From: an uncultured Actinomycetota bacterium
GTDB lineage: Bacteria; Actinomycetota; Actinomycetes; Mycobacteriales; Mycobacteriaceae
DNA length: 64,000 bases
Reading direction: 5' to 3'
Assembly (NCBI GenBank): GCA_963698965.1
Contig: CAVOSY010000037.1
Coordinates: 55,141-119,140, forward strand
Each line of letters begins with the position of its first letter. Positions within the stretch are counted from its first letter, which is position 1. The notes below the pieces were generated by a model that saw only the letters and a list, made by a program, of their open reading frames with translations, made no database searches and had not been told where the DNA came from. Below, in pieces: positions 34,121 to 51,028 of the stretch. Position numbers and translations under genes: made by a program.

Positions 34121-34314
34121 CAGTCCTCGTCCTCGGATTGGTGGCGCGCCCGCCGCAGCAGCCGAATCCCGTTGCCGAGCGCGCCATCGAGAAGGATGGC
34201 GATGCCGTACGCCAGCGCGAGCACGACGGGCATCACCACCGCGGTTTGGGCAACGAACGGCAGGCCGGACAGCCACAGTTCGACGCCGTCCCACCAGTTG
34301 AGGAAGCCGCCCAC
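34120..34314 (-). CDS. Small membrane protein (Rv2401A-like)
   Basis: MGGFLNWWDGVELWLSGLPFVAQ...; conserved position between subI and trehalase. Confidence 0.8.
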   Translation of the reverse strand: MGGFLNWWDGVELWLSGLPFVAQTAVVMPVVLALAYGIAILLDGALGNGIRLLRRARHQSEDED

Positions 34315-34540
34315 CCGGCCAGACTATTCGACGCGAATATGTCCGAGCGCCGGCCGACGCCGACCGGATCGAGAAGACCACCTGCGTCGTTGCCGGTTCT
34401 CCACAGCCGGGTCATCGCTGTCGCCGCATCAGCAGGTCAGCCGAACATGTGCCGGAGTTTGCCCGGCGCTGAACCGAACGCCACCGGACACGCGTCGGCA
34501 CGAGTGGACGCCGGGCCGCCCGGCGGTCGATGATGTCCGC

Positions 34541-36571
34541 ATGGTCCTGCAACAAACCGAGCCTTCCGACGGGGCCCCTGAGGCCAAGGGAGCGCTGGCC
34601 GTTCAAGAAGGCGAGGCGGAAGCCCCGTTCACCGTGACGGCACCGGTCCCGTACGCCGGCAGCGGGTTGCGGAACCCCTTTCCCCCGATCGCTGACTATG
34701 CGTTCCTGTCCGACTGCGAGAACACCTGCCTGATCTCGTCGGCCGGTTCGGTGGAATGGCTGTGCGTCCCCCGTCCGGACTCCGCGAGTGTCTTCGGCGC
34801 GATCCTCGACCGCGGCGCGGGCCACTTCCGGCTGGGCCCGTACGGCGTTTCGGTGCCCGCCGCGCGCCGGTACCTGCCGGGCAGCCTGATCCTGGAGACC
34901 ACCTGGCAGACCCACACCGGCTGGGTGATCGTGCGCGACGCGCTGGTGATGGGGCCGTGGCACGACATCGACGCGCGGTCGCGCACGCATCGCCGTACGC
35001 CGATGGACTGGGACGCCGAGCACATCCTGCTGCGCACGGTGCGATGTGTGAGCGGCACGGTCGAGTTGGTGATGAACTGCGAGCCGGCTTTCGACTACCA
35101 CCGCATCCCCGCTACGTGGGAGTACTCGGCCCAGGCCTACGGCGAGTCGATCGCCCGTGCCAGCCGCGACCCCGACGCGCATCCGACGCTGCGCCTGACC
35201 ACTAACCTGCGGCTGGGACTGGAGGGCCACGAGGCGCGGGCACGCACCCGAATGAAGGAGGGCGACAACGTCTTCGTCGCGCTGTCCTGGTCCAAGCATC
35301 CGGTTCCGCAGACCTACGACGAGGCCGCCGACAAGATGTGGCAGACCAGCGAGTGCTGGCGGCAGTGGATCAACATCGGTGAATTTCCGGACCACCCGTG
35401 GCGGTCGTACCTGCAGCGCAGCGCGCTCACACTGAAGGGCCTGACGTACTCGCCGACTGGGGCGCTGTTGGCGGCGCCCACCACGTCGCTGCCGGAAACC
35501 CCTCAGGGCGAACGAAATTGGGACTACCGGTACGGGTGGGTGCGCGATTCGACGTTCGCATTGTGGGGCCTCTACACACTGGGCCTGGACCGTGAGGCCG
35601 ACGACTTCTTCGCGTTCATCGCCGACGTGTCCGGAGCCAATAACGGTGAGCGCCATCCGCTTCAGGTGATGTACGCCGTCGGCGGTGAGCGCAGCCTGGT
35701 CGAAGAGGAGCTGCACCACCTGTCGGGTTACGACAACGCCCGCCCGGTGCGCATCGGCAACGGCGCCTACAACCAGATGCAGCACGACATCTGGGGCACA
35801 ATGCTGGACTCGGTCTATCTGCACGCCAAGTCGCGCGAGCATATCTCCGACACGCTGTGGCCGGTGCTCAAGCAACAGGTCGAGGAGGCGATCAAACACT
35901 GGCGCGAACCCGACCGCGGCATCTGGGAGGTGCGCGGCGAGCCCCAGCACTTCACCTCGTCGAAGATCATGTGCTGGGTCGCGCTGGACCGCGGATCCAA
36001 ACTGGCCGAACTCCAGGGCGAGAAGTCCTACGCCCAACAGTGGCGTGCGATCGCCGAGGAGATCAAGGCCGACATCCTGGCCAACGGCGTCGACTCCCGC
36101 GGCGTGCTCACCCAGCGCTACGGCGACGACGCGCTGGACGCCTCCCTGCTGCTGGCCATCCTGACCCGCTTCCTGCCAGCCGATGACCCGCGGGTGCGCG
36201 CGACGGTGCTGGCCATCGCCGACGAGCTGACAGAGGAAGGCCTCGTGTTGAGGTACCGCGTCGAGGAAACCGACGACGGCCTGTCGGGCGAGGAAGGCAC
36301 GTTCACGATCTGCTCGTTCTGGCTGGTGTCGGCGCTGGTCGAGATCGGCGAGATCCACCGGGCCAAACACCTGTGCGAGCGGCTGTTGTCGTTCGCGAGC
36401 CCCTTGCACCTCTACGCGGAGGAGATCGAGCCGCGCACGGGCAGGCACCTGGGCAACTTCCCGCAGGCGTTCACCCACCTGGCTTTGATCAACGCGGTCG
36501 TGCACGTCATCCGGGCTGAGGAAGAGGCCGACAGCTCCGGCGTGTTCGTGCCTGCCAACGCCCCGATGTAG
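34541..36571 (+). CDS. GH15 glycoside hydrolase (trehalase, Rv2402-like)
   Basis: PIADYAFLSDC, RNWDYRYGWVRD, GIWEVRG, YAEEI...LGNFPQAFTHL. Confidence 0.93.
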   Translation: MVLQQTEPSDGAPEAKGALAVQEGEAEAPFTVTAPVPYAGSGLRNPFPPIADYAFLSDCENTCLISSAGSVEWLCVPRPDSASVFGAILDRGAGHFRLGPYGVSVPAARRYLPGSLILETTWQTHTGWVIVRDALVMGPWHDIDARSRTHRRTPMDWDAEHILLRTVRCVSGTVELVMNCEPAFDYHRIPATWEYSAQAYGESIARASRDPDAHPTLRLTTNLRLGLEGHEARARTRMKEGDNVFVALSWSKHPVPQTYDEAADKMWQTSECWRQWINIGEFPDHPWRSYLQRSALTLKGLTYSPTGALLAAPTTSLPETPQGERNWDYRYGWVRDSTFALWGLYTLGLDREADDFFAFIADVSGANNGERHPLQVMYAVGGERSLVEEELHHLSGYDNARPVRIGNGAYNQMQHDIWGTMLDSVYLHAKSREHISDTLWPVLKQQVEEAIKHWREPDRGIWEVRGEPQHFTSSKIMCWVALDRGSKLAELQGEKSYAQQWRAIAEEIKADILANGVDSRGVLTQRYGDDALDASLLLAILTRFLPADDPRVRATVLAIADELTEEGLVLRYRVEETDDGLSGEEGTFTICSFWLVSALVEIGEIHRAKHLCERLLSFASPLHLYAEEIEPRTGRHLGNFPQAFTHLALINAVVHVIRAEEEADSSGVFVPANAPM

Positions 36572-36666
36572 GGACGGTGGCGTCCGGATGACGGGTCGGT
36601 AGCGCTTCTGGATCACCGCGGGTCAATGCCTTGTCGACCGCGGCCTCGTCACGCACGATGGCATCC

Positions 36667-36930
36667 ATGAGCTATCGCGCAGGGGACGAGTCATCGCGTC
36701 GAGTGATCGACGTTGCCATCGGAATCCTCATCGGGCTGCGCGGCTGCTCCGATATCGAGGCGTTCGACGAACTGGTACGCGTGGTGCATCAAACCGGGGT
36801 CGGCATCGGACGGCTGGCCGCCGGATTGGTGGCGCTGGCAAGCGGTTCGTCCTCTGCCGAGCATGCCGAGGCGTACGCCGTGTGGGGTGAGCTGTTGCGG
36901 CGCGATGGCCTAGTGCACGCGGGAGTTTAG
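36667..36930 (+). CDS. ANTAR-domain-only protein
   Basis: VIDVAIGILIGLRGCSDIEAFDELVRVVHQTG = ANTAR IxxAxGIL...AF..L pattern. Confidence 0.8.
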   Translation: MSYRAGDESSRRVIDVAIGILIGLRGCSDIEAFDELVRVVHQTGVGIGRLAAGLVALASGSSSAEHAEAYAVWGELLRRDGLVHAGV

Positions 36931-38175
36931 GTAGATCGCGAAGTCGACGATGAGCGGCGCCGGCCTGGCCAGTGCGACCGGGGTCAGCCGGCTGTTCGAG
37001 TCGTCGCGGGCGACACCGGTGATCACCCGTCCGCCCAGCCCATTCGGTGTCGCAGGCACCGTCGCGGTGAGAAGCACGCCGTCCCGCCCCGGTCGCGGCC
37101 GGACATAGAACTCGGTGCCGGGTTCGACGGGACCGGTCACCTTCCGTCCAGCGGCGTCGACGATGGTCGCGTCGACGGCCGTCAGCGCTGCGCTGTCGAT
37201 GGCCTGCAGTCGGAGCGGGCCAATCAGGCCATCGACGAATGTCGCGTCATCGGTGCGGATTTCGGCGGGAACGGCGCTTGCGCGCGCCCGTTGTGCGCCG
37301 GCCAGCAAGTAGTCGTACAGGTGCACGATGCGGTGCGGGTTGCGGTACGTCGCCGAGCGGTTCAGCCAGAACCCGACCTCCCCGACGACGACCGCGGAAT
37401 CGGCGAGGGTGACGAGTCGGTAGTACCGGTAGCCCTCACCGCCGCGGCCGTGCCCGCTACGCGACACCGTGCTTCCGACACCGAGTGCCTTGCGGTGGGT
37501 GCCCTTACCCGCCTCGACGTTCAAGCCGGAGGCGGCCACGTCGCGCCAGTTGCGACCGTCGACCGACTTCTGCAGGATCAGTGACACCGCGCTGCGTGAC
37601 GCGAGTTCGACTGAGTAGCCGCCCAATTCGAGCTCTCCCGCGAACGCGAAGAATATGCCGTTGGCGGTGCGGCGCTCGGCGACCGGCACGTTCAGCGGGC
37701 GGTTGTCGAGGTTCAGGTCATTGGTGAAGTGCCAGATCGCGGCCTGCGTCGCGGCGATGGCCTCATGGTCGGTGATGTGGCCTGCGCCGAGCGGGTAGCC
37801 GGCGGCGCGCAGCCTGCGGCTCAGTTCCGCCGGCCGGAGCGCGGGAAACGAGTTGCGCAGGATCCAATCGACTTCCGCCTCGTGGGCGCGGGTGCGCAGG
37901 TTCGGCACTGCGGACCACGTCGCCGCGCGGTAGTGCGCGGGCTTGGTAGGCGCGTGTCCGGTGAAGTCCAGTGAGTAGGCCTCGATGTTCGGGTTGAGCC
38001 GGATGAGGTCAGTGCGCGCCTTGGAGCCGTCGGTGAACACGACGGTGTCGACGGTGTGCGAGTAGGTGCCGCCGCGATACCGGGTCATCCGCGCGATATC
38101 GACGTCGCGGGCGCGGACGTGCCGCCGCACCGAGACGGGCAGGCGAGCAGGCCTTGGCAGGGAAAGAACGGTCAT
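36910..38175 (-). CDS. TQXA/thioester-domain-like protein with Ser at the thioester Cys position
   Basis: AYSLDF, WILRNSFP, ATQAAIWHFT, YDYLL; discoidin-like LQKSVDGRNW...YRYYRL insert; no signal peptide. Confidence 0.82.
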   Translation of the reverse strand: MTVLSLPRPARLPVSVRRHVRARDVDIARMTRYRGGTYSHTVDTVVFTDGSKARTDLIRLNPNIEAYSLDFTGHAPTKPAHYRAATWSAVPNLRTRAHEAEVDWILRNSFPALRPAELSRRLRAAGYPLGAGHITDHEAIAATQAAIWHFTNDLNLDNRPLNVPVAERRTANGIFFAFAGELELGGYSVELASRSAVSLILQKSVDGRNWRDVAASGLNVEAGKGTHRKALGVGSTVSRSGHGRGGEGYRYYRLVTLADSAVVVGEVGFWLNRSATYRNPHRIVHLYDYLLAGAQRARASAVPAEIRTDDATFVDGLIGPLRLQAIDSAALTAVDATIVDAAGRKVTGPVEPGTEFYVRPRPGRDGVLLTATVPATPNGLGGRVITGVARDDSNSRLTPVALARPAPLIVDFAIYLNSRVH

Positions 38176-38266
38176 GCGGGTTGACTTTCTGGGCTCTGAA
38201 CAACGCGTATCGGCGCACCGCCGGATATGGGCGGGCCTTTAACGCAGGGAGAACGGCGTCAGAAAA

Positions 38267-38335
38267 TCAACAACAACAACAGCGCACGTCGAGGAGGCGC
38301 GCGGGACGATGACGCAGCGGCGTCAGCTGTTGCAT
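38267..38335 (-). CDS. Leaderless poly-Cys leader peptide (22 aa) upstream of the TQXA gene
   Basis: TATGGT -10, 6 nt, ATG; MQQLTPLRHRPARLLDVRCCCC; four TGT codons then TGA. Confidence 0.85.
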   Translation of the reverse strand: MQQLTPLRHRPARLLDVRCCCC

Positions 38336-38484
38336 GCCTATACCATACGGCACGCCATGGACGAAACGGCAATCTGTGGATTTACCTCGTCGTGCGCGCT
38401 AACGGTGCGCGCCGCTTCCCGCTGCCCGATGATGGGGATGGCACAGAGTGTCTGCCCTGATTGAGACCAAGTCGGAGGTACATC

Positions 38485-39408
38485 ATGACGACAGCCCAGA
38501 ACGAGTCACAGGCGCTCGGCGATCTCGCCGCACGGCAACTCGCGAATGCAACCAAGACCGTTCCCCAGCTGTCCACCATCACCCCGAGGTTCCTGCTGCA
38601 CCTACTGAGCTGGGTGCCCGTCGAGGCAGGCATCTACCGGGTGAACCGCGTGGTCAATCCCGAACAGGTCGCCATTCACTCCGAGGAGGGCGCGGGCACA
38701 GAAGAGCCGCTACCCGAGACCTATGTCGATTACGAGACCAGCCCGCGCGAGTACACGCTGCGGTCCATCTCGACCCTGCTCGACGTGCACACCCGCGTCT
38801 CCGACCTGTACTCCAGCCCGCACGATCAGATCGCGCAGCAGCTGCGCCTGACGATCGAGACGATCAAGGAGCGCCAGGAGTACGAGCTCGTCAACAACCC
38901 CGAATACGGGCTGTTGTCTCAAGTCACGCCCGAACAAACCATCCAGACGTTGGCGAAGGCGCCTACCCCCGATGACCTGGACGCGCTGATCACCCTGGTG
39001 TGGAAGACACCCAGCTTCTTCCTGACTCATCCGCTCGGTGTGGCTGCATTCGGCCGGGAGGCCACCTATCGCGGTGTGCCGCCGGTGGTCGTCAGCTTGT
39101 TCGGAGCGCAATTCATCACGTGGCGCGGCATCCCGATCGTGCCCTCGGACAAGGTCCCGGTGGAGAAGGGCAAAACCAAGTTCATCCTGGTCCGTACCGG
39201 CGAGGAACGTCAGGGTGTGGTGGGTCTGTTCCAACCGGGGCTGGTTGGCGAGCAGGCGCCGGGGCTGTCGGTGCGGTTCACCGGGATAAACCGGTCGGCG
39301 ATCGCGTCGTACCTGGTGACGCTGTACTCGTCGCTGGCCGTGCTCACCGACGATGCGCTGGCCGTGCTCGACGGCGCGGCCGTGGACCAGTTCCATGAGT
39401 ACAAGTGA
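38485..39408 (+). CDS. Family 2A encapsulin shell protein (SrpI/major membrane protein I type)
   Basis: GGAGG RBS; LANATKTVPQLSTITPRFL, GIYRVNRV, DLYSSPHDQIAQQLRL, PTPDDLD, WRGIPIVPSDKVP. Confidence 0.92.
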   Translation: MTTAQNESQALGDLAARQLANATKTVPQLSTITPRFLLHLLSWVPVEAGIYRVNRVVNPEQVAIHSEEGAGTEEPLPETYVDYETSPREYTLRSISTLLDVHTRVSDLYSSPHDQIAQQLRLTIETIKERQEYELVNNPEYGLLSQVTPEQTIQTLAKAPTPDDLDALITLVWKTPSFFLTHPLGVAAFGREATYRGVPPVVVSLFGAQFITWRGIPIVPSDKVPVEKGKTKFILVRTGEERQGVVGLFQPGLVGEQAPGLSVRFTGINRSAIASYLVTLYSSLAVLTDDALAVLDGAAVDQFHEYK

Positions 39409-41260
39409 GTATCGGTCGATAGACGCCGAAAGCGACCTGCCTATCGGCGCAACGGAACTCGCGGCGCTGGCGTCCCAGTTGTTCGCTGCCAGCGTCCGTC
39501 CCGGACCGGACAGCCCGCCGCAGGCGTCGCCCGTCGCGCCGCGGGGCAATGTCCCCGACACGACGGCGGCGGCGTCCGCCGGTACCGCCGCGGCGGGCTC
39601 GGCCAACCCGTTCACGCCTGCGGCACCGGTGATCCCGCTGACCGACGTGTACGTGCACGCGCCGACTTCGCCTGAGCCCGATGGCATTCCGCAGACGGTC
39701 CCCGTCGCGCCGCGAGGCAATGTGCCGGATGCGGCCTCGGCGCCGTCGGCGGCCTACACAGTCGAGAGTGCACTCGACCCGTATGCGGTACCGACTTCGG
39801 GCATCGTGCCGACGATTCCAGGTGTGCTCGCCGGATCGACGCCAACGTTTCCGGTCGCACCGCGCGGCTCGGTGCCGGGCTGGCTACCGGGCGCGCCGAC
39901 GATCGGCGACCTGGGCTGGTCGGACGCCCCGATGGCGGCGCCGGTGGGTGACGAGGCGAACTACTATTTCCTGAGCGGTCCGGTGATCTCGGACGTCCCC
40001 GCCGAGCCCGTGCCGCAATTGCCCGACAGGCACGAGGTTTTCGACGTCAACGCGGTACGCGCCGACTTCCCGATTCTGCAGGAGACGGTCAACGGCAAGC
40101 CGCTGATCTGGTTCGACAATGCCGCCACCACGCAGAAGCCGCAGGTCGTCATCGACCGGTTGTCCTATTTCTACGCCCACGAGAACTCCAACATCCACCG
40201 TGCCGCTCACGAGCTGGCAGCCAGGGCCACCGACGCCTACGAGGAAGCCCGCGACACCGTGCGGCGCTTCATCGGTGCGTCGAAGAGCGAGGAGATCATC
40301 TTCCTGCGCGGCACCACCGAGGCGATCAACCTGGTCGCGTACGCCTGGGGCGGCAAGCACCTGGGACCGGGCGACGAGATCGTCATCACCCACCTGGAGC
40401 ACCACGCGAATATCGTTCCCTGGCAGCTGCTTTCGCAGCAGACGGGCGCGATCCTGCGGGTCGCGCCGGTGGACGACGCGGGCAACCTGTTGATGTCGGA
40501 GTTCGAGGATCTTCTCGGCCCGAAGACCAAACTGGTTGCTGCCACCCATGTGTCGAATGCGCTGGGGACAGTGACCGAAGCCCAGAAGATCGTCGAGCTC
40601 GGTCACCGGTACGGCGCGCGGGTGTTGATCGACGGTGCCCAGTCGATTCCACACATTCCCATCGATGTGCAGGAGCTCGGTGCGGATTTCTTCGTATTCT
40701 CGGGCCACAAGATCTACGGCCCCACCGGCATCGGTGCGCTCTACGGACGCGAGGACGCGTTAGAGGAAACACCGCCGTGGCAGGGCGGTGGCAACATGAT
40801 CGCAGACGTGACGTTGGAACGTTCGCTCTATCAAGGCCCGCCGAACAAGTTCGAAGCAGGCACCGGCAACATCGCCGACGCGGTCGGCCTCGGCGAGGCG
40901 CTGCGGTACGTCGAACGCGTTGGCATCGAACGGATCGCGGCCTACGAGCATGCGCTGCTGGAGTACGCCACCCCGCGGCTGGCCGATATCGACGGTGTCC
41001 GGCTCGTTGGCACCGCTCGGGAGAAGGCCAGCGTGTTGTCCTTCGTGCTGGCGGGCCATGAGCCGCTGGAAGTAGGCAAGGCGCTCAATGCCGAGGGCAT
41101 CGCGGTCCGTGCCGGGCACCATTGTGCGCAGCCGATCCTGCGACGCCTCGGCCTGGAGGCCACGGTGCGGCCGTCGTTCGCCTTCTACAACACGTTCGAC
41201 GAGATCGACGTGTTCCTCAACGCGGTGCGCCGAATCGCCGAGGGTGAGGTCGCTGTCTAG
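39395..41260 (+). CDS. Encapsulin cargo cysteine desulfurase (SufS type) with about 210-aa disordered N-terminal extension
   Basis: FDNAATTQKP, FSGHK (PLP Lys), RAGHHCAQP catalytic Cys; LAALASQLFA motif in extension. Confidence 0.94.
   Translation: MSTSEYRSIDAESDLPIGATELAALASQLFAASVRPGPDSPPQASPVAPRGNVPDTTAAASAGTAAAGSANPFTPAAPVIPLTDVYVHAPTSPEPDGIPQTVPVAPRGNVPDAASAPSAAYTVESALDPYAVPTSGIVPTIPGVLAGSTPTFPVAPRGSVPGWLPGAPTIGDLGWSDAPMAAPVGDEANYYFLSGPVISDVPAEPVPQLPDRHEVFDVNAVRADFPILQETVNGKPLIWFDNAATTQKPQVVIDRLSYFYAHENSNIHRAAHELAARATDAYEEARDTVRRFIGASKSEEIIFLRGTTEAINLVAYAWGGKHLGPGDEIVITHLEHHANIVPWQLLSQQTGAILRVAPVDDAGNLLMSEFEDLLGPKTKLVAATHVSNALGTVTEAQKIVELGHRYGARVLIDGAQSIPHIPIDVQELGADFFVFSGHKIYGPTGIGALYGREDALEETPPWQGGGNMIADVTLERSLYQGPPNKFEAGTGNIADAVGLGEALRYVERVGIERIAAYEHALLEYATPRLADIDGVRLVGTAREKASVLSFVLAGHEPLEVGKALNAEGIAVRAGHHCAQPILRRLGLEATVRPSFAFYNTFDEIDVFLNAVRRIAEGEVAV
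39530..39880 (+). repeat. Three copies of PVAPRG(N/S)VP(D/G) in the desulfurase extension
   Basis: Copies at 39530-39559, 39701-39730, 39851-39880. Confidence 0.85.
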
Positions 41261-41266
41261 CGGGGC

Positions 41267-41902
41267 CTAGGTGACGAGCGGACGTCCGAGCGGCAGCGCC
41301 CTGCCGCCCGTCTCCTCCCACAACGCGGCGACGTAGAAGTAGATGACGAACGCCACGAACGCGAATACGAACCATCCGCCGGCACGCGTCGCCGCGACAC
41401 TGCCGGTCTGGTTTCCGACCAGAAGCAGCACAAGTGCCACGTCGACAATCGCCATCAGCACGGGGAATGTCCACGGCAGCCGGAGTACCAGCACCGTGAG
41501 CAACCCGATCGTGAGCAGCCAGCTGCCCAGCCAGAGCGCCACTGTCTGTTGCACTCCGGTGTCTGGTATGCCAAACCAGTTGTGCGCCAGACCCAACGAC
41601 AGAACGGCGTAGCTTCCGTAGAAGCCGAAGAACGTGCCGTAGATGGTGGCGTTGATGTTCTGGCTGAGCGCCGCCGACCAGATCGTTGTGACAAGTAGTC
41701 CGATCGCCGTGGCGGACAACAGGATCGGCACCGCGGCAGCGGCCACGTTGATGATTCCGGTGTTGATGAAACCCAGCCCGGTCGCACCCGCAATGATGAG
41801 GGGCAGCGCGATCAGGCCGGGGTTGCCCTCCGGCTTTGCCGGTGGCGGATCGGCGAGTGTCCGCGATGGCGTGTCGATGGTGCGTTCGGCGATATCGGTC
41901 AT
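41267..41902 (-). CDS. GPR1/FUN34/YaaH (SatP-like) small-anion channel
   Basis: GNPGLIALP, ATIYGTFFGFYGSY; six TM helices; GAGGA RBS. Confidence 0.8.
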   Translation of the reverse strand: MTDIAERTIDTPSRTLADPPPAKPEGNPGLIALPLIIAGATGLGFINTGIINVAAAAVPILLSATAIGLLVTTIWSAALSQNINATIYGTFFGFYGSYAVLSLGLAHNWFGIPDTGVQQTVALWLGSWLLTIGLLTVLVLRLPWTFPVLMAIVDVALVLLLVGNQTGSVAATRAGGWFVFAFVAFVIYFYVAALWEETGGRALPLGRPLVT

Positions 41903-41915
41903 GTGAGTCCTCGGG

Positions 41916-42965
41916 CTATCCGGTGGCGAGCGCTGGTTCGCGCGCGGTGGTGAACTCCTGCCACGCGACCAGGACGGCTTCCAGTTGTTCCGCTGAATGT
42001 CTGCCGAGCCCACACTCGGTGGAGATGCCGAATTCCGGAAGAAACTCCGCAGCCACCGCAGCACGGGCGCGGGCGCCGGCGGCACCGTCTTCGGCGTGCA
42101 GCAGCCCGAGGAAGACCTCGGTGTCGGCCTCCAGTGCGAGGTCGGCCAGCGGCTGCCAGTGGGCCCGCTTTGTCCACGACGCGACGGTCGCGGCCTGGAT
42201 CGCATCGATTCGCCGTTGCACGTGCCGGGACAGTCCGTTGGCCAGGGTCACGATCGCGGTAGCGTCGCGCGGCAGGATGTGCCTGCCGCCACGGGCGGCC
42301 GCCTCCTCGTTCGGTGGGTCACCCATGAATGGCGACGCCCCGAATTTCGAGTCGCCGTAGCACAAATGGAAGGTGAGCTCGGCGTCATCGTGCACCCAGT
42401 GCGCGAGGCGGGCGGTGGCGGCGAAGATCGGCTCAACCCCACCGTAGGGGTTGGGGAACCAGCCCTCGATTGTCGCCAACTCGGTCGGCAGATCCCATTG
42501 GATGGCGAGGTCGCTCGGCGGGATCACCTCCTGCAGCGCATCGACGCTGCGCCGCAGTTGCTGTTCGTACGCGTACGCGACCTCGACCTGGGAGTCGAAC
42601 TCCACGAACGAGTTCACCGCGTTGAATGGAGTTGGGATGGATACCAGAAAGCGTGAATCCGGCTTCAGCACACCGTCTTCGCGTGCGTTCTTGAACTCGG
42701 CATACGACTCGGCGGCGATGCTGTGGTAGTCGAGCGCCCCGAAGGAGACCGTGGCGCCAGGACGGACCTTGGCTCGGTTGTCGACGACCTCGAGGGTGGA
42801 GTTCTTCAAGAAGTGGTCGGCCTGCGTCAGCACCCAGTTCGCCCGGTCGCCTGGTTCGCCGTCGGGGACGCGGGTGACGCCTGGCTGAAGGCGCTCACCC
42901 ACGAGCCGGAACGCGTCTTGGATGGTCGGGACGTTGATGCTGCCGGTGAGATAGAAGCCAGTCAT
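41916..42965 (-). CDS. Cobalamin-independent methionine synthase (MetE)-like Zn enzyme, catalytic-domain only
   Basis: TGS N-terminus, PDGEPGDR..W, FHLCYGD and ISTECGLGR Zn ligands. Confidence 0.72.
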   Translation of the reverse strand: MTGFYLTGSINVPTIQDAFRLVGERLQPGVTRVPDGEPGDRANWVLTQADHFLKNSTLEVVDNRAKVRPGATVSFGALDYHSIAAESYAEFKNAREDGVLKPDSRFLVSIPTPFNAVNSFVEFDSQVEVAYAYEQQLRRSVDALQEVIPPSDLAIQWDLPTELATIEGWFPNPYGGVEPIFAATARLAHWVHDDAELTFHLCYGDSKFGASPFMGDPPNEEAAARGGRHILPRDATAIVTLANGLSRHVQRRIDAIQAATVASWTKRAHWQPLADLALEADTEVFLGLLHAEDGAAGARARAAVAAEFLPEFGISTECGLGRHSAEQLEAVLVAWQEFTTAREPALATG

Positions 42966-42994: not shown

Positions 42995-44227
42995 CTACAG
43001 AAGCACGCCGAGGCGCGGCGGGTTGGTTCCGAACAGGGTGTGGTTGCCGAGGTGGACGTATTTCCAGCGAGCGGGGTCGTGAAGCGAATGCACGCGCACG
43101 TTGCGCCAGTGCCGGTCCAGCGCGTAGCCGGCGTCGGTCGCCGATGCGCCGGCGAGTTCGAAGATGCCGCTGGCGATCTCGACCGCGAACTCCTGCGCCA
43201 GGGCCTTCGCGGCGGCGATGTTGAGCGACGCGCTGGCCGCCGCCTCCCGGGTCAGCTCCGGTGCGGCCAGTGCCTCGTCGACCAGCCCGGCACCGCGTGC
43301 GAGCAGTGCCTCCAGGGCGTACAGCCGCGCCGTCAGCTCACCGAATCGGCGGACGACGTGTGGTTCCTCTGCGGCGCTGTCCACGCCGGCCTCAAACCAC
43401 GGCCGAGTTTTCGTGGTGACGAACCGCGCGCCGTCTTCCAGTGCGGCACGGGCGATGCCGATGTCGACGGCGGCGTGCAACGCCTGATCGAACGCGCCGA
43501 GCACGGACGGCGGCGCGGTCACCGGGTCGGGATCGGGACCTTCGTCGATGACGAACTCGTCGTCGACGACCACCTGATCGAGCACGACCTCGCCGCTCGC
43601 CGTGCCCCGCTGACCGAATGACGTCCAGCGGTCCAGGTTCAGGCTGACCCCTGGATCGGCCGGCTGGACGAATACGGTTGCGCCGTGTGAGGGTTCGGTG
43701 TCCGGAATCCGCGCGGCGACCCCGATCCACGTCGCGCCGAGCGCGCCGGTTGCATAGAACTTCTTGCCATTGAGCACCCAGGTGTCGTCGTCCCGGCGCG
43801 TCACCGTCGTGAGCCGCTCGACACTGGTACGGGTACCCCGCTCGACGGTGGCATTGCCGATTTGCGCCCCGTCGAGCACATCGCGGTAGATCCGCGGGGC
43901 CGGGTCGGCGCCCTCCAAACCCTGGATCGCCGCGCTGAGCACGAAGTGCGACAGCAGCAGCTGGCCGACGGCCGAATCCGCTTGGGACAGAATGCGCAGC
44001 ACTTCGACCGCGGTCGACTGTGGAAGATCGGGTCCACCATGGGCCGCAGGAACGATGATCCCGAGCAGCCCCGATGCGGCGACCTGCCGCAGTTCCTGCT
44101 CCGGCCACGTCCCCGTGAGCTCACGCTCGACGACACCTGCTGCGATGGTGGCGGCAACGGAACGAGCGGTCTGCAACGCCTCGTGGGTCGAACTGAGAAC
44201 CGGGGTGGTGCTCTCGGTGGTCGTCAT
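42995..44227 (-). CDS. Acyl-CoA-dehydrogenase-fold flavin monooxygenase, SfnB/DszC-like
   Basis: NGKKFYATG, FGQRGTASG, LDRHWRNVRVHSLHDPARWK; TACGGT -10 7 nt before ATG (leaderless). Confidence 0.85.
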   Translation of the reverse strand: MTTTESTTPVLSSTHEALQTARSVAATIAAGVVERELTGTWPEQELRQVAASGLLGIIVPAAHGGPDLPQSTAVEVLRILSQADSAVGQLLLSHFVLSAAIQGLEGADPAPRIYRDVLDGAQIGNATVERGTRTSVERLTTVTRRDDDTWVLNGKKFYATGALGATWIGVAARIPDTEPSHGATVFVQPADPGVSLNLDRWTSFGQRGTASGEVVLDQVVVDDEFVIDEGPDPDPVTAPPSVLGAFDQALHAAVDIGIARAALEDGARFVTTKTRPWFEAGVDSAAEEPHVVRRFGELTARLYALEALLARGAGLVDEALAAPELTREAAASASLNIAAAKALAQEFAVEIASGIFELAGASATDAGYALDRHWRNVRVHSLHDPARWKYVHLGNHTLFGTNPPRLGVLL

Positions 44228-44269: not shown

Positions 44270-45223
44270 TCAAGCGACGCTAAAGGGGCGTTCAGGAACG
44301 CTGTAGACCGCTTCGGCGCTGAGGTGCGCACCGACGGCCCGCACAAGCGAAAGGAACGTCGCCAACGGTGTCCCGGCCGCCGGCCGATCGACCGTCGCCA
44401 TCGATATGCGCCGGATCGGGCGCGGGCCGGCCACCCGCCGCACCGCGACGTCTGCGCGGACGGCGCCCGCTGCAAGCGAAGGCACAAGTGACACACCGAG
44501 ATTCGCGGCCACCAGACCCTGCACCGTCGGATAGTCCTCGGCGCGGAAGGTGACCGATGGAATGAAACCCGCGCGACGGCACGCTTGCTGAAAGACGCGG
44601 ACGTCGGGACAGGTCCCCGTTTCGGTGCTGACCACCCACTGTTCGGCGGCCAGCGCCGCGAACGGCACCTCCGCCGCGGCCGCCAGCCGGTGTCGCGCGG
44701 GCAGCACGACGAAGAACTCGTCGTCGTAGACGGGCATGGTGTGGACCCCGGAAAACTCGGCGTCCTCCCCTGGCACCTCGGTGATGACCGCGGCATCGAC
44801 TCCGTCGCTGCTCAGCATCGCGACGCCCTCCTCGGGATCGGCGGAAACCAGATCCAGGTCGATGTCTGGGCACAGCGTCCGGAACCGCGCGAACGCCAGC
44901 GGCAGGATCGCCGCGGCGGCGCTGGCGAACGACGCCACCCGCACCACCCCGGGCCTGGCGGTGGCCAACAGGGTCAGATCGCGTTCCGCGGCCGCGACCG
45001 CACCGAGGATCACATCGGCGTGCTCGAGCAGCCTCGTCCCCGCAGCGGTCGGCCGGACCCCGGTCGGGCTGCGGACCAGCAGTGTGGAGCCGACGTCGCG
45101 CTCGAGTGCACTGATCTGCTGAGACACCGCCGACGTGGTGTAGTTCAGCGATGCTGCGGCCGCGGAAAGCGAGCCGCAGCGGATGACTTCCTGCAGCACG
45201 GCCAGACGGCGCACATCGAACAC
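44270..45223 (-). CDS. LysR-family transcriptional regulator
   Basis: GSLSAAAASLNYTTSAVSQQISALE HTH; substrate-binding domain. Confidence 0.94.
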   Translation of the reverse strand: MFDVRRLAVLQEVIRCGSLSAAAASLNYTTSAVSQQISALERDVGSTLLVRSPTGVRPTAAGTRLLEHADVILGAVAAAERDLTLLATARPGVVRVASFASAAAAILPLAFARFRTLCPDIDLDLVSADPEEGVAMLSSDGVDAAVITEVPGEDAEFSGVHTMPVYDDEFFVVLPARHRLAAAAEVPFAALAAEQWVVSTETGTCPDVRVFQQACRRAGFIPSVTFRAEDYPTVQGLVAANLGVSLVPSLAAGAVRADVAVRRVAGPRPIRRISMATVDRPAAGTPLATFLSLVRAVGAHLSAEAVYSVPERPFSVA

Positions 45224-47495: not shown

Positions 47496-48896
47496 CTAAC
47501 CCGTTGCGCTGCTGTCGGTCTCATCGCTGTGTCGTCGTGTCAGCGGTTCACGCAGCCCGAGATGGCCGCGCAACGTCGTCGACGCGTACTCGGTCCGGTA
47601 CACCCCGCGTTCCTGTAGTGCGGGCACCAGCCAATCGACGATCTCGTCGAGTCCGCCGGGCACGATGTACGGCGAGATGTTGAAGCCGTCGGTCGCGCCG
47701 GCACGTACCCACCGGGCCAGCTCGTCTGCGACCTGCTCCGGCGTGCCCACAAAGCCGGAGCGCTCTGAGGTTTCGATGGCAACTTGGCGCAGAGACAGGT
47801 TCTTGGCCTCCGCGAGCGCACGCCACTCCTTCGCGATGGCGATCGGGTCCTTGCCGTCCCTCGCCGCGCCGCGGGTGGCCGAAATCGGCGCAGGCACCGG
47901 ATCGAACTCCGGCAATGGACCGTCAGGGTCGCGGTCAGACAGGTCACGCCCCCACACCAGACCCACAAGGGACAACGCCGTCTGTCCCGTGTACTGGCCC
48001 TCGAGGACCCAGCGTCGCTTCTCCTCGACCTCTGAAGCCTTCTCCGCCAGCACGATCTGAGTCCCCGGAAGGATTCTGATGTCGTCGGCCGGCCTGCCCG
48101 CTGCGAGCAGACGCGCGCGGATGTCGGTGGCGAACGCCAACGCATCGTCGAAGTGCGTGCCGTGACGGGAGAAGATGACATCGGCATTGGCCGCGGCGAA
48201 ATCTCGGCCCGTCGGCGAATCCCCGGCCTGGAAAATGACCGGATGTCCCTGGGGGCTGCGCGGCAACGTCGCGTCGAGTGAGATCTCGAACTGAGACGTC
48301 GAACGGTCGAGATGCCGTACCGCGGTTGGATCGGACCAGAACTCGCTGGCGGTAGATGACGCGATGGCGTCGTCGGCCCACGAATCCCAGATCGCTCGCG
48401 CCGCGCGAATGAACTGACCGGCCCGCTCGTAGCGCAGCGCATGATCGAGAAAACCGCCGCGCCGAAAATTCTCTCCCGTCCAGGCGTTGTCGGTCGTGAC
48501 GGCGTTCCACCCCGCCCGGCCTCCGGAGAGGATGTCGAGCCCCGCCAACCGGCGAGCCAGGTCGCCGGGTTCGTTATACGTGGTGTTCTGGGTTGCGACG
48601 AGACCGATGCGCTCGGTGATGCCCGCCAGGGCCGACAATTGCGCGATCGCGTCGGGGCGGCCGACGATGTCGAGGTCCAGGATCTTGCCGTCCTGCTCGC
48701 GCAATCGGAGACCCTCTCCGAGGAAGAACGCGTCGAACAATCCCCGCTCGGCCGTCGTGACGACGTGTCGGAAGGTTTCGAAGTCGATCTGCGAACCACT
48801 CGCTGCGTCGGACCAGATCGTGGTGTGGTTCACGCCCTGAAAGAACACGCCGAAGTGAACCTGTGCGTCGGGACGGAGCACGTCGGAGGAGCCCAT
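47496..48896 (-). CDS. NtaA/DmoA/SoxA-family FMN-dependent monooxygenase
   Basis: AERGLFDAFFL, SGGRAGWNAVT, SPQGHPVIFQAGDS, TLRGHLGL. Confidence 0.92.
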   Translation of the reverse strand: MGSSDVLRPDAQVHFGVFFQGVNHTTIWSDAASGSQIDFETFRHVVTTAERGLFDAFFLGEGLRLREQDGKILDLDIVGRPDAIAQLSALAGITERIGLVATQNTTYNEPGDLARRLAGLDILSGGRAGWNAVTTDNAWTGENFRRGGFLDHALRYERAGQFIRAARAIWDSWADDAIASSTASEFWSDPTAVRHLDRSTSQFEISLDATLPRSPQGHPVIFQAGDSPTGRDFAAANADVIFSRHGTHFDDALAFATDIRARLLAAGRPADDIRILPGTQIVLAEKASEVEEKRRWVLEGQYTGQTALSLVGLVWGRDLSDRDPDGPLPEFDPVPAPISATRGAARDGKDPIAIAKEWRALAEAKNLSLRQVAIETSERSGFVGTPEQVADELARWVRAGATDGFNISPYIVPGGLDEIVDWLVPALQERGVYRTEYASTTLRGHLGLREPLTRRHSDETDSSATG

Positions 48897-48902
48897 GACT
48901 AT

Positions 48903-49961
48903 TCACACCTTCGCGTAGCGGTTGGCGGGCCGGTCCAGACCGAGGTGGCCGCGCAGCGATGACCCTGGCACGGGCCGATGCGCCACTCCCGTCCTGAGCA
49001 AGGCTGGCAGGACGTAGCGCGCAAGGGCGGGTAGATCCTGGTCGATGACCATGGGGAACAGGCGCACTCCATTGCTGTGCGCCGCGAGCTCGGTTAGCAG
49101 CTCCACGAATCCGCTTGTGCTGCCGATGTATTGGAGGCGCCGACGCCGAGTTGCCAGCTCGTACTGGTTCAGCGCCGAGAGGCGGTCCGCGGCGGCGGCA
49201 TCAGTTGTGTCGAGGGCGACGTCGATCTCGATGACGGTGAGCCCGCTGCTGCGGGTCGCTGCATCGACGGCCGCGTCGCGGTCGGACTCGGTTACGAGAA
49301 CGATGTCGACCTGGTCGCGGTCGGCTTCGGCACCGAAGACGACCAATTGACCCTGCGGCGGTCTCGGGACGATGGCCGGCCCCTTCACGCTGAACGATTC
49401 GCCCTCGAAATCGACGTAGTGCAGCTTGTCGCGGTCCAGGAATCGGCCGCGCGCGTAGTCGCGGATGACCGCGTCGTCCTCCCATGAATCCCACAGGTCG
49501 CGCACCACGGTCAGCGAATCCCGTTGCTCGCGGTCGAGATCGGCCTGCTCGGCGACGACCGGGCTCCCCCAGGCCCGTGCGGCCGCCGGATCGAAGGCGC
49601 GCGCGGCTATCCAGCCGCCACGGCCTCGGGACGCGTAGTCGAGGGTGGCCAGTTGCGACGATGTGTGAAACGGCTCGGCATATGTGGTCTCGACTACGGG
49701 AACCAGGCCGATCGTCGACGTCGTCGCCGCGACGAACGACGCCCGGTTGACCGCGTCCACGCGTGCTCTGATGCCGCCGCGCGGAGGCAGGATCGAATCG
49801 TCGAACGTCGCAAACGTGAATCCCGCGTTCTCGGCCGCACGCACCTTCTGCAGGAGCGTTCGTCCGCTCAGCGAATCGTTCGGCGGATGATTCGCGTGGC
49901 GCCATGCCGCCGGATGGCTTCCCTCGCCGTCCAACTCGATGCCCAGCGCGAAAACGCTCAT
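48903..49961 (-). CDS. LLM-class flavin-dependent monooxygenase
   Basis: HPAAWR, AENAGFTFATFDD, LATLDYASRGRGGW, SVKGPAIVPRPPQG. Confidence 0.88.
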   Translation of the reverse strand: MSVFALGIELDGEGSHPAAWRHANHPPNDSLSGRTLLQKVRAAENAGFTFATFDDSILPPRGGIRARVDAVNRASFVAATTSTIGLVPVVETTYAEPFHTSSQLATLDYASRGRGGWIAARAFDPAAARAWGSPVVAEQADLDREQRDSLTVVRDLWDSWEDDAVIRDYARGRFLDRDKLHYVDFEGESFSVKGPAIVPRPPQGQLVVFGAEADRDQVDIVLVTESDRDAAVDAATRSSGLTVIEIDVALDTTDAAAADRLSALNQYELATRRRRLQYIGSTSGFVELLTELAAHSNGVRLFPMVIDQDLPALARYVLPALLRTGVAHRPVPGSSLRGHLGLDRPANRYAKV

Positions 49962-51028
49962 AGCACAACCTCTTTCCGGCTCGACTGCGCGGCCAGCGGT
50001 CTGCTCGCTATCTGGTCACGAAGAACCGGCGCAACGTCGGACTGGAACAGTTCGAGACTACGGCGCTTCTGAGCGACCGTCACACCGTCGGCCTCGGCGC
50101 TGAGGTGGATCACCTCGTGACCGAGTTGCTCGTGGTAGCGGCCCACCTTGTCGATCACCTGCTGCGGGCTGCCGATGAGCGCCGAGCTGCGGTCGACGAA
50201 GTCTTCGATGGACTCGAACACCACCGGCAGTCCGGCGCGCCGCTGAAACGCCAAGCGTGACTCGAAAGTAAGCCGGTACTCGGCCACGGCCTGCTGAGTC
50301 GTCGCAGCGATGTGAAACCCTGCGGTTCCCGCGCCGACCAGCGCATCTCCGGGATCGTGGCCGTACTGCTCCCAACGTTGCCGGTAGTGGCGCACCAGCT
50401 CGGCGTACGGCTCGATTGGGTAGGTGACGTTGGCCGAGAAGATCGGGTCGCCGTTGCGGGCCGCCAGGTCGACGGAATCCCTGCTCGTCGCACTGCCGTG
50501 CCAGATCCGAATCCGCGGCTGTAACGGCCGCGGGAGTGCCTTGGCGTCGACCAGCGGTGGGCGAAAACTGCCGGACCAGGTCACGTGCTCGTTGTCCCAC
50601 AGCAAGCGGAACAGCTCATAGCCCTCACGATTACGGTCCCACTGGTCGGTGGTGGTCACGTGGAACAACTCGGCCTGCGCGGCGCCGTTGCCTTTACCGA
50701 TGATCAGTTCCAGCCGGCCGTCGGACAGGTTGTCCAGCGTCGAATAGTCCTCGAATGCCCGGACGGGATCGAGCAGGCTCAACGTGGTCACCGCCGTGAA
50801 CAGCGCAATCCGCGACGTCCGCGCTGCGATGTTGCTCAGCACCACCGGCGGGGACGATGAGATGAACGGATCCTCATGGCGCTCGCCCACGGCGAAGCCG
50901 TCGAAACCCAGCTGCTCGGCGAGCACCGCGCTGTCGACCACTTCGCGCAGCCGATCTGCGGGACTCTTCTTCTCACCCGATACGGGGTTCGGATGGTGCG
51001 CAATCAGCGTCAGCAACAGAAACTTCAA
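49958..51028 (-). CDS. LLM-class (luciferase-like) monooxygenase
   Basis: AEQLGFDGFAVGERH, SSSPPVVL, LDNLSDGRLELIIGKGN, IWHGSATS. Confidence 0.9.
   Translation of the reverse strand: MKFLLLTLIAHHPNPVSGEKKSPADRLREVVDSAVLAEQLGFDGFAVGERHEDPFISSSPPVVLSNIAARTSRIALFTAVTTLSLLDPVRAFEDYSTLDNLSDGRLELIIGKGNGAAQAELFHVTTTDQWDRNREGYELFRLLWDNEHVTWSGSFRPPLVDAKALPRPLQPRIRIWHGSATSRDSVDLAARNGDPIFSANVTYPIEPYAELVRHYRQRWEQYGHDPGDALVGAGTAGFHIAATTQQAVAEYRLTFESRLAFQRRAGLPVVFESIEDFVDRSSALIGSPQQVIDKVGRYHEQLGHEVIHLSAEADGVTVAQKRRSLELFQSDVAPVLRDQIASRPLAAQSSRKEVVL

Follow-up and report, generated by a model that had tools for sequence, protein, structure and literature searches.

What is a protein built on the thioester domain (TED), a scaffold known only from surface adhesins, doing next to the genes of an intracellular sulfur compartment? 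The question is raised by a stretch of 64,000 nucleotides (nt) from an uncultured Actinomycetota bacterium (contig CAVOSY010000037.1, positions 55,141 to 119,140; hereafter the window), whose sequence was present only in soil and rhizosphere DNA metagenomes and in no RNA runs, and whose source is a soil Mycobacterium. Three of its genes frame the question:

36910-38175, minus strand: gene of the TED-like protein, 421 amino acids, ATG start at 38175 (open reading frame with matches to Pfam TED and TIGR03934)
38485-39408, plus strand: family 2A encapsulin shell (Mmp1/SrpI-like), divergent from the TED-like gene (NF041162, E 2.8e-147; PF19307)
39395-41260, plus strand: cysteine desulfurase, the encapsulin cargo, whose N-terminal loading domain is disordered (NF041166, E 4.2e-257)

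That desulfurase encapsulins store elemental sulfur is a recent finding, and for mycobacteria both the acceptor of the sulfur and its remobilisation are described as unknown (PMC11659603). The reading we favour, whose chances we judge to be about even, is that the TED-like protein is a cytoplasmic, thioester-dead TED derivative that would act as a dedicated non-covalent accessory of the actinobacterial family 2A encapsulin/desulfurase compartment, gated by Cys-tRNA. Because the gene lies beside shell and cargo in every judgeable locus of one clade, and in mycobacteria is wired to a cysteine-sensing attenuator, it is a testable candidate for a missing component of the sulfur compartment.

The association with the encapsulin was followed through gene neighbourhoods. 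Among species-representative genomes, 251 had a relative of the TED-like gene, and the best 80 loci were examined; nearly all of the 80 genomes listed were Mycobacterium, Mycolicibacterium or Mycolicibacter, the rest being less specifically labelled metagenome bins. Shell and desulfurase directly adjoined the TED-like gene in 78 of the 78 loci that included upstream DNA, and the opposite flank (glucoamylase-like gene, sulfate transporter) varied among the mycobacterial loci. Five homologues at 35-45% identity, from a Raineyella sp., a Microbacterium sp. and three metagenome or read-assembly contigs, all adjoined a SrpI-like shell gene as well. Two of these five were divergent, and three were co-directional and upstream, in the order TED-like gene, shell, desulfurase; in Raineyella, Microbacterium and one of the contigs (L086) the TED-like gene heads an apparent three-gene operon with shell and cargo. 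In the reverse test, 80 metagenome loci were found with an encapsulin query and judged by the identity of their shell to the Raineyella shell. The TED-like gene was present in 17 of the 17 loci with a shell at least 74% identical and at least 1.4 kb of upstream DNA, and in none of the 55 other loci (shell identity <=75%), many of which extended 6 kb on both sides. Because it occurs throughout one encapsulin clade and is missing beside the more distant shells, the gene is a clade-specific encapsulin companion. Identities ranged over 35-85% for the TED-like protein and 72-97% for the shell; the former evolves much faster than the shell, and its gene keeps its place through rearrangements. An obligate genomic association with the desulfurase encapsulin is strongly supported by these neighbourhoods. 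The first-pass annotation, made from the window sequence, had suggested that the protein might be an unrecognised encapsulin partner and had proposed co-occurrence with family 2A encapsulins as a check; adjacency in every judgeable locus (78 + 5 + 17), with 0/55 beside distant shells, bears out this suggestion. The linkage was found in none of the papers searched: the searchable text of PMC8346489, PMC10836720 and PMC11659603 yielded no mention of a TED-like companion, and the accessories listed there are a serine O-acetyltransferase and a rhodanese.

The flanks of the distant loci differ. In Raineyella sp. W15-4 (L081, 6892-12322), where TED-like gene, shell and desulfurase are co-directional, DUF4395 and thioredoxin-like genes precede them, and in the Microbacterium locus (L084) the upstream genes encode a luciferase-like monooxygenase, an acetyltransferase and a PALP enzyme.

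A gene in this position could encode a second cargo, packaged in the encapsulin via an N-terminal extension, a role that the first-pass annotation had also raised. The encapsulin-linked homologues do all have a variable Pro/Arg/Ala-rich N-terminal extension before a conserved RYRGGTYS, and PVSVRRHV weakly resembles the desulfurase repeat PVAPRGNV. When residues 1-33 were aligned locally to the loading domain, however, the score was not significant (z 0.39), 176 of 500 shuffles scoring as high; residues 15-20 were modelled as a strand, in a block with a mean predicted local distance difference test (pLDDT) score of about 80, and not as disordered; and the desulfurase is reported to be the sole cargo in A. 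baumannii (PMC10836720). Packaging of the TED-like protein is thus very improbable. In the desulfurase itself, the loading domain (39395-40070, plus strand) holds three copies of PVAPRG[NS]VP and an ELAALASQLF, probably shell-binding motifs.

A likeness to the accessory role that we favour is offered by Proteobacteria, where rhodanese and serine O-acetyltransferase genes are conserved non-cargo neighbours of shell and cargo, co-induced by sulfur limitation (PMC8346489, PMC10836720). Those accessories are enzymes with known sulfur chemistry, whereas the TED-like protein has neither a thiol nor a recognisable catalytic site and, unlike them, is confined to one actinobacterial encapsulin clade. 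Since it lacks a thiol, it cannot be a persulfide carrier.

What, then, is the protein itself? PF08341 (TED) matched residues 67-155 at profile positions 3-74 (E 1.5e-10, 41.8 bits, cutoff 22), and TIGR03934 (TQXA_dom) matched with E 2.9e-16 (59.1 bits, cutoff 30.4). A word-indexed search returned 940 relatives, the top 120 of which with a source name were all from Mycobacterium or Mycolicibacterium and were named 'thioester/TQXA domain-containing protein'. The family is small, as an exhaustive search of 1.84 billion cluster representatives matched only 273 clusters. As canonical Cys-type references we used two proteins obtained by tblastn against plasmids, Streptomyces WP_326683026 (YCIDI), annotated 'Cys-Gln thioester bond-forming surface protein', and an Embleya open reading frame (YCIDL), both of which carry LAETG anchors. 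Alignment by hhalign of 104 family members to these two gave a probability of 98.8% and E 5.8e-17 over 250 columns. Among PDB sequences, phmmer and profile searches gave only a marginal match, to the TQ region of Cpa (E about 1). Descent from the bacterial TED family is, as far as profiles and alignments can establish it, strongly supported. The TED-like unit is split into two halves by an insertion:

37681-38085, minus strand: N-terminal half of the TED-like unit, residues 31-165 (Pfam TED at 67-155, invariant columns, AlphaFold2 model, hhalign)
37360-37680, minus strand: F5/8 type C (discoidin/CBM32-like) jelly-roll insertion, residues ~166-272 (Foldseek, gap in hhalign, Pfam match in the paralogue P0199)
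36913-37359, minus strand: C-terminal half of the TED-like unit, residues 273-421 (hhalign and MAFFT against Cys-type TEDs)

The N-terminal half comprises the strands FTDG..RTDLIRLNP, the pair Y67-S68, three helices and A-T143-Q144-AAIW; the C-terminal half opens with a helix, HLYDYLL, followed by a beta domain. The first of two AlphaFold2 (AF2) models, made from 40 sequences, reached a pLDDT of 77.9 and was poor around Ser68. The second, from 104 sequences including homologues of 34-45% identity, reached a pLDDT of 86.3 and a predicted template modelling score (pTM) of 0.80, and placed Ser68 in a beta strand and the TQ motif in the third helix. The order of the modelled secondary-structure elements agrees with the published description of TEDs. 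With the canonical TEDs (Cpa, SfbI, CpTIE and Streptomyces WP_326683026) the protein shares homology over about 250 columns and the order of Y-x-phi-zeta strands, three helices with TQxxphiW and a C-terminal beta region. It differs from them in having Ser for Cys, no thioester Gln, no signal peptide, stalk or wall anchor, and an F5/8C-like insert, and in lying in an encapsulin locus and not in a pilus or adhesin locus.

The exchange at the reactive site, which the first-pass annotation had read from AYSLDF (residues 66-71; Ser68 codon TCA at 37972-37974), was recovered by three alignments. Profile position 4 of the Pfam TED model is Cys in both canonical proteins and Ser68 in the TED-like protein, MAFFT likewise placed Ser68 in the Cys column, and hhalign set Ser68 against the canonical Cys and aligned the TQ motifs with each other. 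In 201 full-length relatives with a single module, the most distant at about 35% identity, the column of the former Cys holds Ser in 196, Ala in one and Cys in none. The codons for this Ser were TCN in all 103 cases in loci L001-L168 (82 TCG, 13 TCC, 5 TCA, 3 TCT), with no AGY, and TCN is one step from the TGY of Cys. Since Ser is near-fixed and its codons are all TCN, Ser68 would seem to have some conserved role. The partner residue fared differently: the canonical thioester Gln (HTQTL) aligned to S395 with hhalign or to L397 with MAFFT, within DDSNSRLTPVAL, and the equivalent position in distant members is E, T, A, R, L, F, C or Y. With the Cys column occupied by Ser68 and the Gln position variable, there is strong support for the view that the family has lost both thioester residues.

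Another Gln, Q202 (LILQKS, 134 residues after Ser68), was considered as the thioester Gln and rejected, as it belongs to the F5/8C insert and is replaced by E, H, L or A in distant homologues.

The same annotation had noted that the TQXA motif is intact. It is indeed: ATQAAIW (residues 142-148, with the Gln144 codon at 37744-37746) is invariant and was modelled as a helix (A-T143-Q144-A-A-I-W148), and of the four Gln residues of the protein only Gln144 is invariant. Its intactness, however, is uninformative on a cross-link, because the TQXA Gln is not the thioester-forming one: of the three motifs that define TEDs, [YFL]C-phi-zeta holds the Cys, whereas the Gln of the helical TQxx-phi-W motif does not pair with it in the thioester and can be lost without preventing the bond (PMC4450167).

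The annotation had further proposed a Ser-Gln oxyester, which finds no support at the canonical site, the Gln equivalent being a variable Ser or Leu. The chemistry could still take another form, with Ser68 esterifying the only invariant candidate, Gln144, or reacting covalently with a target. The near-fixation of Ser68 (196/201), the invariance of Gln144 and the uniform TCN codons, one step from TGY, all fit such a bond, and the two residues should be close together, as the TQ Gln hydrogen-bonds the Cys backbone in solved TEDs (PMC4450167); Thr-Gln ester cross-links are also known from other adhesin domains (PMC12679949). Yet the canonical partner is missing, mutation of the TQ Gln in Cpa left thioester formation unaffected (PMC4450167), one homologue has Ala for Ser, and no conserved His/Asp triad was seen, H137 being Pro or Asp in distant members. 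The comparison with Cpe0147-type Thr-Gln ester domains is similarly divided, since Ser68 and Gln144 are conserved in the TED-like family and no conserved His/acid pair was found. We regard an oxyester as quite improbable and prefer non-covalent action by a thioester-dead TED. Complement C5, a thioester-less member of the eukaryotic thioester protein family, acts by non-covalent binding; this is an analogy only, as its fold and lineage are unrelated to those of the TED-like protein.

The discoidin-like insert, also pointed out at first pass, was borne out as a modelled jelly roll of F5/8C (CBM32-like) type. In a Foldseek search of the PDB, 4a42, 4a41, 4a44, 3f2z, 2kd7 and 7wdt matched it with probability 1.00 (template modelling score, normalised to the target, 0.4-0.56; 109-120 columns), and discoidin II (2vme) with probability 0.95; the BFVD viral library likewise gave matches of jelly-roll type and no TEDs. 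Residues ~166-272 remained unaligned in hhalign against canonical TEDs, as expected of an insertion. No match to PF00754 was found in the TED-like protein at E <= 0.1, and of the homologous inserts that of P0199 matched Pfam F5_F8_type_C with 32.4 bits (cutoff 28.2) and that of P0184 scored 23.5 bits. A beta-sandwich insertion is also a feature of class II TEDs (PMC9210967).

The closest relatives outside the encapsulin-linked family are secreted proteins of Leucobacter, Microbacterium ulmi and Sanguibacter (P0184, P0189 and P0206) of 874-1125 amino acids, with signal peptides, two TED-like modules and anchors composed of LxxTG and a membrane segment. They share the YS[VAL]DF and ATQAAIW motifs with the TED-like protein, and in their module 2 the FTDG..TDL strands recur together with the F5/8C insertion, which matches Pfam F5_F8_type_C. 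Because module 1 is without the jelly roll and module 2 has it, the jelly roll is best seen as an insertion. Apart from signal peptides, second module and anchors, they differ in that several retain Gln or Glu close to where the canonical Gln lies. Ser occupies the former Cys column in these wall-anchored relatives (Microbacteriaceae, Sanguibacter) too, which argues that it is a feature of the clade and not a local sulfur-sparing exchange.

P0184 (Leucobacter WP_449280889) and P0189 (Microbacterium ulmi WP_167035087), which both have Ser at the Cys position, bear the NCBI name 'Cys-Gln thioester bond-forming surface protein', and P0184 contains no cysteine at all. A wider Ser-type TED clade, with at least this one member devoid of cysteine, is currently annotated as 'Cys-Gln thioester bond-forming' and seems to be mis-described by that annotation.

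Could the TED-like protein then be an adhesin or tether that is exported by a non-classical route and works with Mmp1 at the cell envelope? In architecture it is closest to surface proteins anchored in the wall. Membrane fractions yielded Mmp1 (PMC11659603), which is reported to promote invasion, and MAV2054 was linked to epithelial invasion (PMC13577054). A hydropathy scan and motif check, however, found no signal peptide, membrane segment or sortase motif (Kyte-Doolittle maximum over 19 residues 1.32; N-terminal maximum 0.63), and among the carriers of the gene are soil saprophytes, Raineyella and Microbacterium, for which one would not expect adhesion to a host. We find this explanation very doubtful. 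Since it has no export signal or membrane segment, the protein is probably cytoplasmic; its composition (no Cys; two Met, M1 and M30) and the lack of an export signal are as the first-pass annotation had described them. The TED scaffold would then occur in a thioester-less cytoplasmic form.

When would such a protein be made? The region between the divergent genes contains the following elements:

38342-38347, minus strand: -10-like hexamer TATGGT (TANNNT), ending 6 nt before the A of the ATG of the short open reading frame (sORF; sequence reading)
38267-38335, minus strand: leaderless-type polycysteine sORF, MQQLTPLRHRPARLLDVRCCCC followed by the stop codon (translation; homologues in 78/78 loci; Ms4536A precedent)
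38260-38271, minus strand: segment complementary to the Shine-Dalgarno (SD) region (anti-SD), comprising the end of the Cys tract, the stop codon and UUUUCUG (minimum free energy fold; conserved duplexes)
38180-38191, minus strand: segment CAGAAAGUCAAC, which contains the SD and lies shortly before the ATG at 38175 (minimum free energy fold; conserved duplexes)

The sORF has 22 codons, the last four before the stop being Cys, and its stop lies 91 nt from the ATG of the TED-like gene. A homologous sORF ending in 3-7 Cys codons and a stop was found in all 78 mycobacterial loci that included the intergenic region. In the minimum free energy fold of the leader (z -2.33), 38260-38271 pairs with 38180-38191, and the two segments show compensatory changes across loci (UUUUCUG/CAGAAAG, UUUCCUG/CAGGAAG and UCUUCUG/CAGAAGG); against shuffles, the duplex had a mean z of -1.97, and z < -1.5 in 72% of loci. 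A scan of the intergenic region for a sigma-70 promoter and a terminator with generic models found nothing. The leader has, on strong support from this covariation, the design of a cysteine-sensing attenuator, the same as in Ms5788A, where experiments demonstrated translational attenuation in response to cysteine (10.1101/834739).

Control by a polycysteine leader, as the annotation had it, is supported and already known, from Ms4536A, a transcribed leaderless sORF upstream of Ms4536/TQXA in M. smegmatis (10.1101/834739). The M. smegmatis gene (MSMEG_4536) shares with ours the TQXA name, the sORF of the same design upstream of a single gene (10.1101/834739) and the neighbours, MSMEG_4537-4538 being the Mmp1/Enc-CD operon (PMC11659603) in the arrangement seen in the window; from these likenesses we infer that the two are orthologues. 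The published work on Ms4536 left its function and regulon membership open and is silent on the Cys-to-Ser exchange, the missing Gln and the encapsulin linkage (10.1101/834739).

The leader also bears on the start of the TED-like protein. M30, the first residue of many database homologues, was considered as the true start and set aside: a conserved SD-like AGAAAG and the anti-SD pairing sit upstream of M1, and M1 was taken as the start because the SD/anti-SD duplex lies directly before the ATG at 38175.

Joined to the encapsulin linkage, this regulation suggests how a non-covalent accessory might work. With Cys-tRNA plentiful, the ribosome would terminate on the sORF and the 3' end of the sORF would pair with the SD region. 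With Cys-tRNA scarce, stalling on the Cys codons would block this pairing and the TED-like protein would be made. It might then bind non-covalently to the encapsulin shell or its contents, via the former thioester groove, the F5/8C domain or both, and so modulate storage or remobilisation of the stored sulfur. In a more specific version, which we consider unlikely, it is a control element made at low Cys-tRNA that docks on the Mmp1 shell, possibly with chemistry by Ser68/Gln144, and either opens or destabilises the shell or plugs it. Opening would release stored sulfur, plugging would stop further consumption of cysteine, and an adhesin-type thioester domain would for the first time be found recruited to an intracellular organelle.

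Several observations weigh against an encapsulin accessory of TED descent that acts without covalent chemistry. Gene adjacency is the sole link between the TED-like protein and the encapsulin. Proteobacterial encapsulins store sulfur without such a protein (PMC10836720), which means that it is not a core part of the compartment. The polycysteine sORF was absent from the five non-mycobacterial loci and is restricted to Mycobacteriaceae, and in M. smegmatis Ms4536 went undetected by proteomics that compared low-cysteine with cysteine-supplemented conditions (10.1101/834739). That Ser68 is near-invariant and Gln144 invariant points to a conserved role, chemical or structural, which the accessory reading does not specify. 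No solved TED was among the top 50 Foldseek matches in the PDB for either model, the ranking being dominated by the F5/8C insert; at the level of the fold, TED membership therefore rests on profile comparisons.

The composition of the protein fits one that is made when cysteine is scarce. Sulfur amino acids make up 0.24% of it, against a window median of 2.2%, and average 0.71% over the 201 family members, 88 of which have no Cys; the encapsulin shell likewise contains no Cys, and no Met beyond the initiator. Both genes lie in an island of sulfur-poor genes (29969-50941) that includes a CysA/W/T/SubI sulfate ABC transporter (0.3-0.9% sulfur amino acids), an acyl-CoA-dehydrogenase-like protein (42995-44227; 0%), three luciferase-like monooxygenases (47496-50941; 0-0.28%) and a LysR regulator (44270-45223) that is itself not sulfur-poor. 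The island looks like a sulfur-starvation regulon with sulfur-sparing composition.

This setting suggests yet another explanation, that of an independent sulfur-starvation protein which merely shares the regulatory neighbourhood and acts elsewhere, for example in sulfur scavenging, with the F5/8C domain as its binding site for a ligand or glycan. Its place in the island, with the sulfate transporter, the luciferase-like monooxygenases and the LysR regulator, would suit this, as would its having a promoter and attenuator of its own and its divergent orientation in mycobacteria. Mere co-regulation, however, sits poorly with an adjacency that survives changes of order, orientation and flanks across at least three actinobacterial lineages, with a gene that tracks one encapsulin clade exactly, and with its position at the head of an apparent operon in Raineyella, Microbacterium and L086. 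An independent role is in our view unlikely, and the encapsulin accessory remains the reading we prefer.

A 99-residue ANTAR-domain open reading frame (36631-36930, plus strand) is convergent with the TED-like gene, the two sharing 21 nt at the 3' end of the latter; most related loci instead have an ANTAR gene downstream of the desulfurase. A large, sulfur-rich open reading frame (34196-36571, plus strand; 3.2% sulfur amino acids), which from its translation alone we took to be glucoamylase/trehalase-like, separates the TED-like gene from the sulfate transporter in many, though not all, mycobacterial loci, and is apparently an intruder with no relation to the sulfur island. Beyond the desulfurase, an open reading frame at 41267-42205 encodes a GPR1/FUN34/YaaH-type membrane protein and overlaps the call of a 349-residue open reading frame (41916-42965, minus strand). 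The latter had no Pfam or NCBIfam match, contains 0.86% sulfur amino acids and is conserved beside the desulfurase in loci L001 and L036 (75-83% identity).

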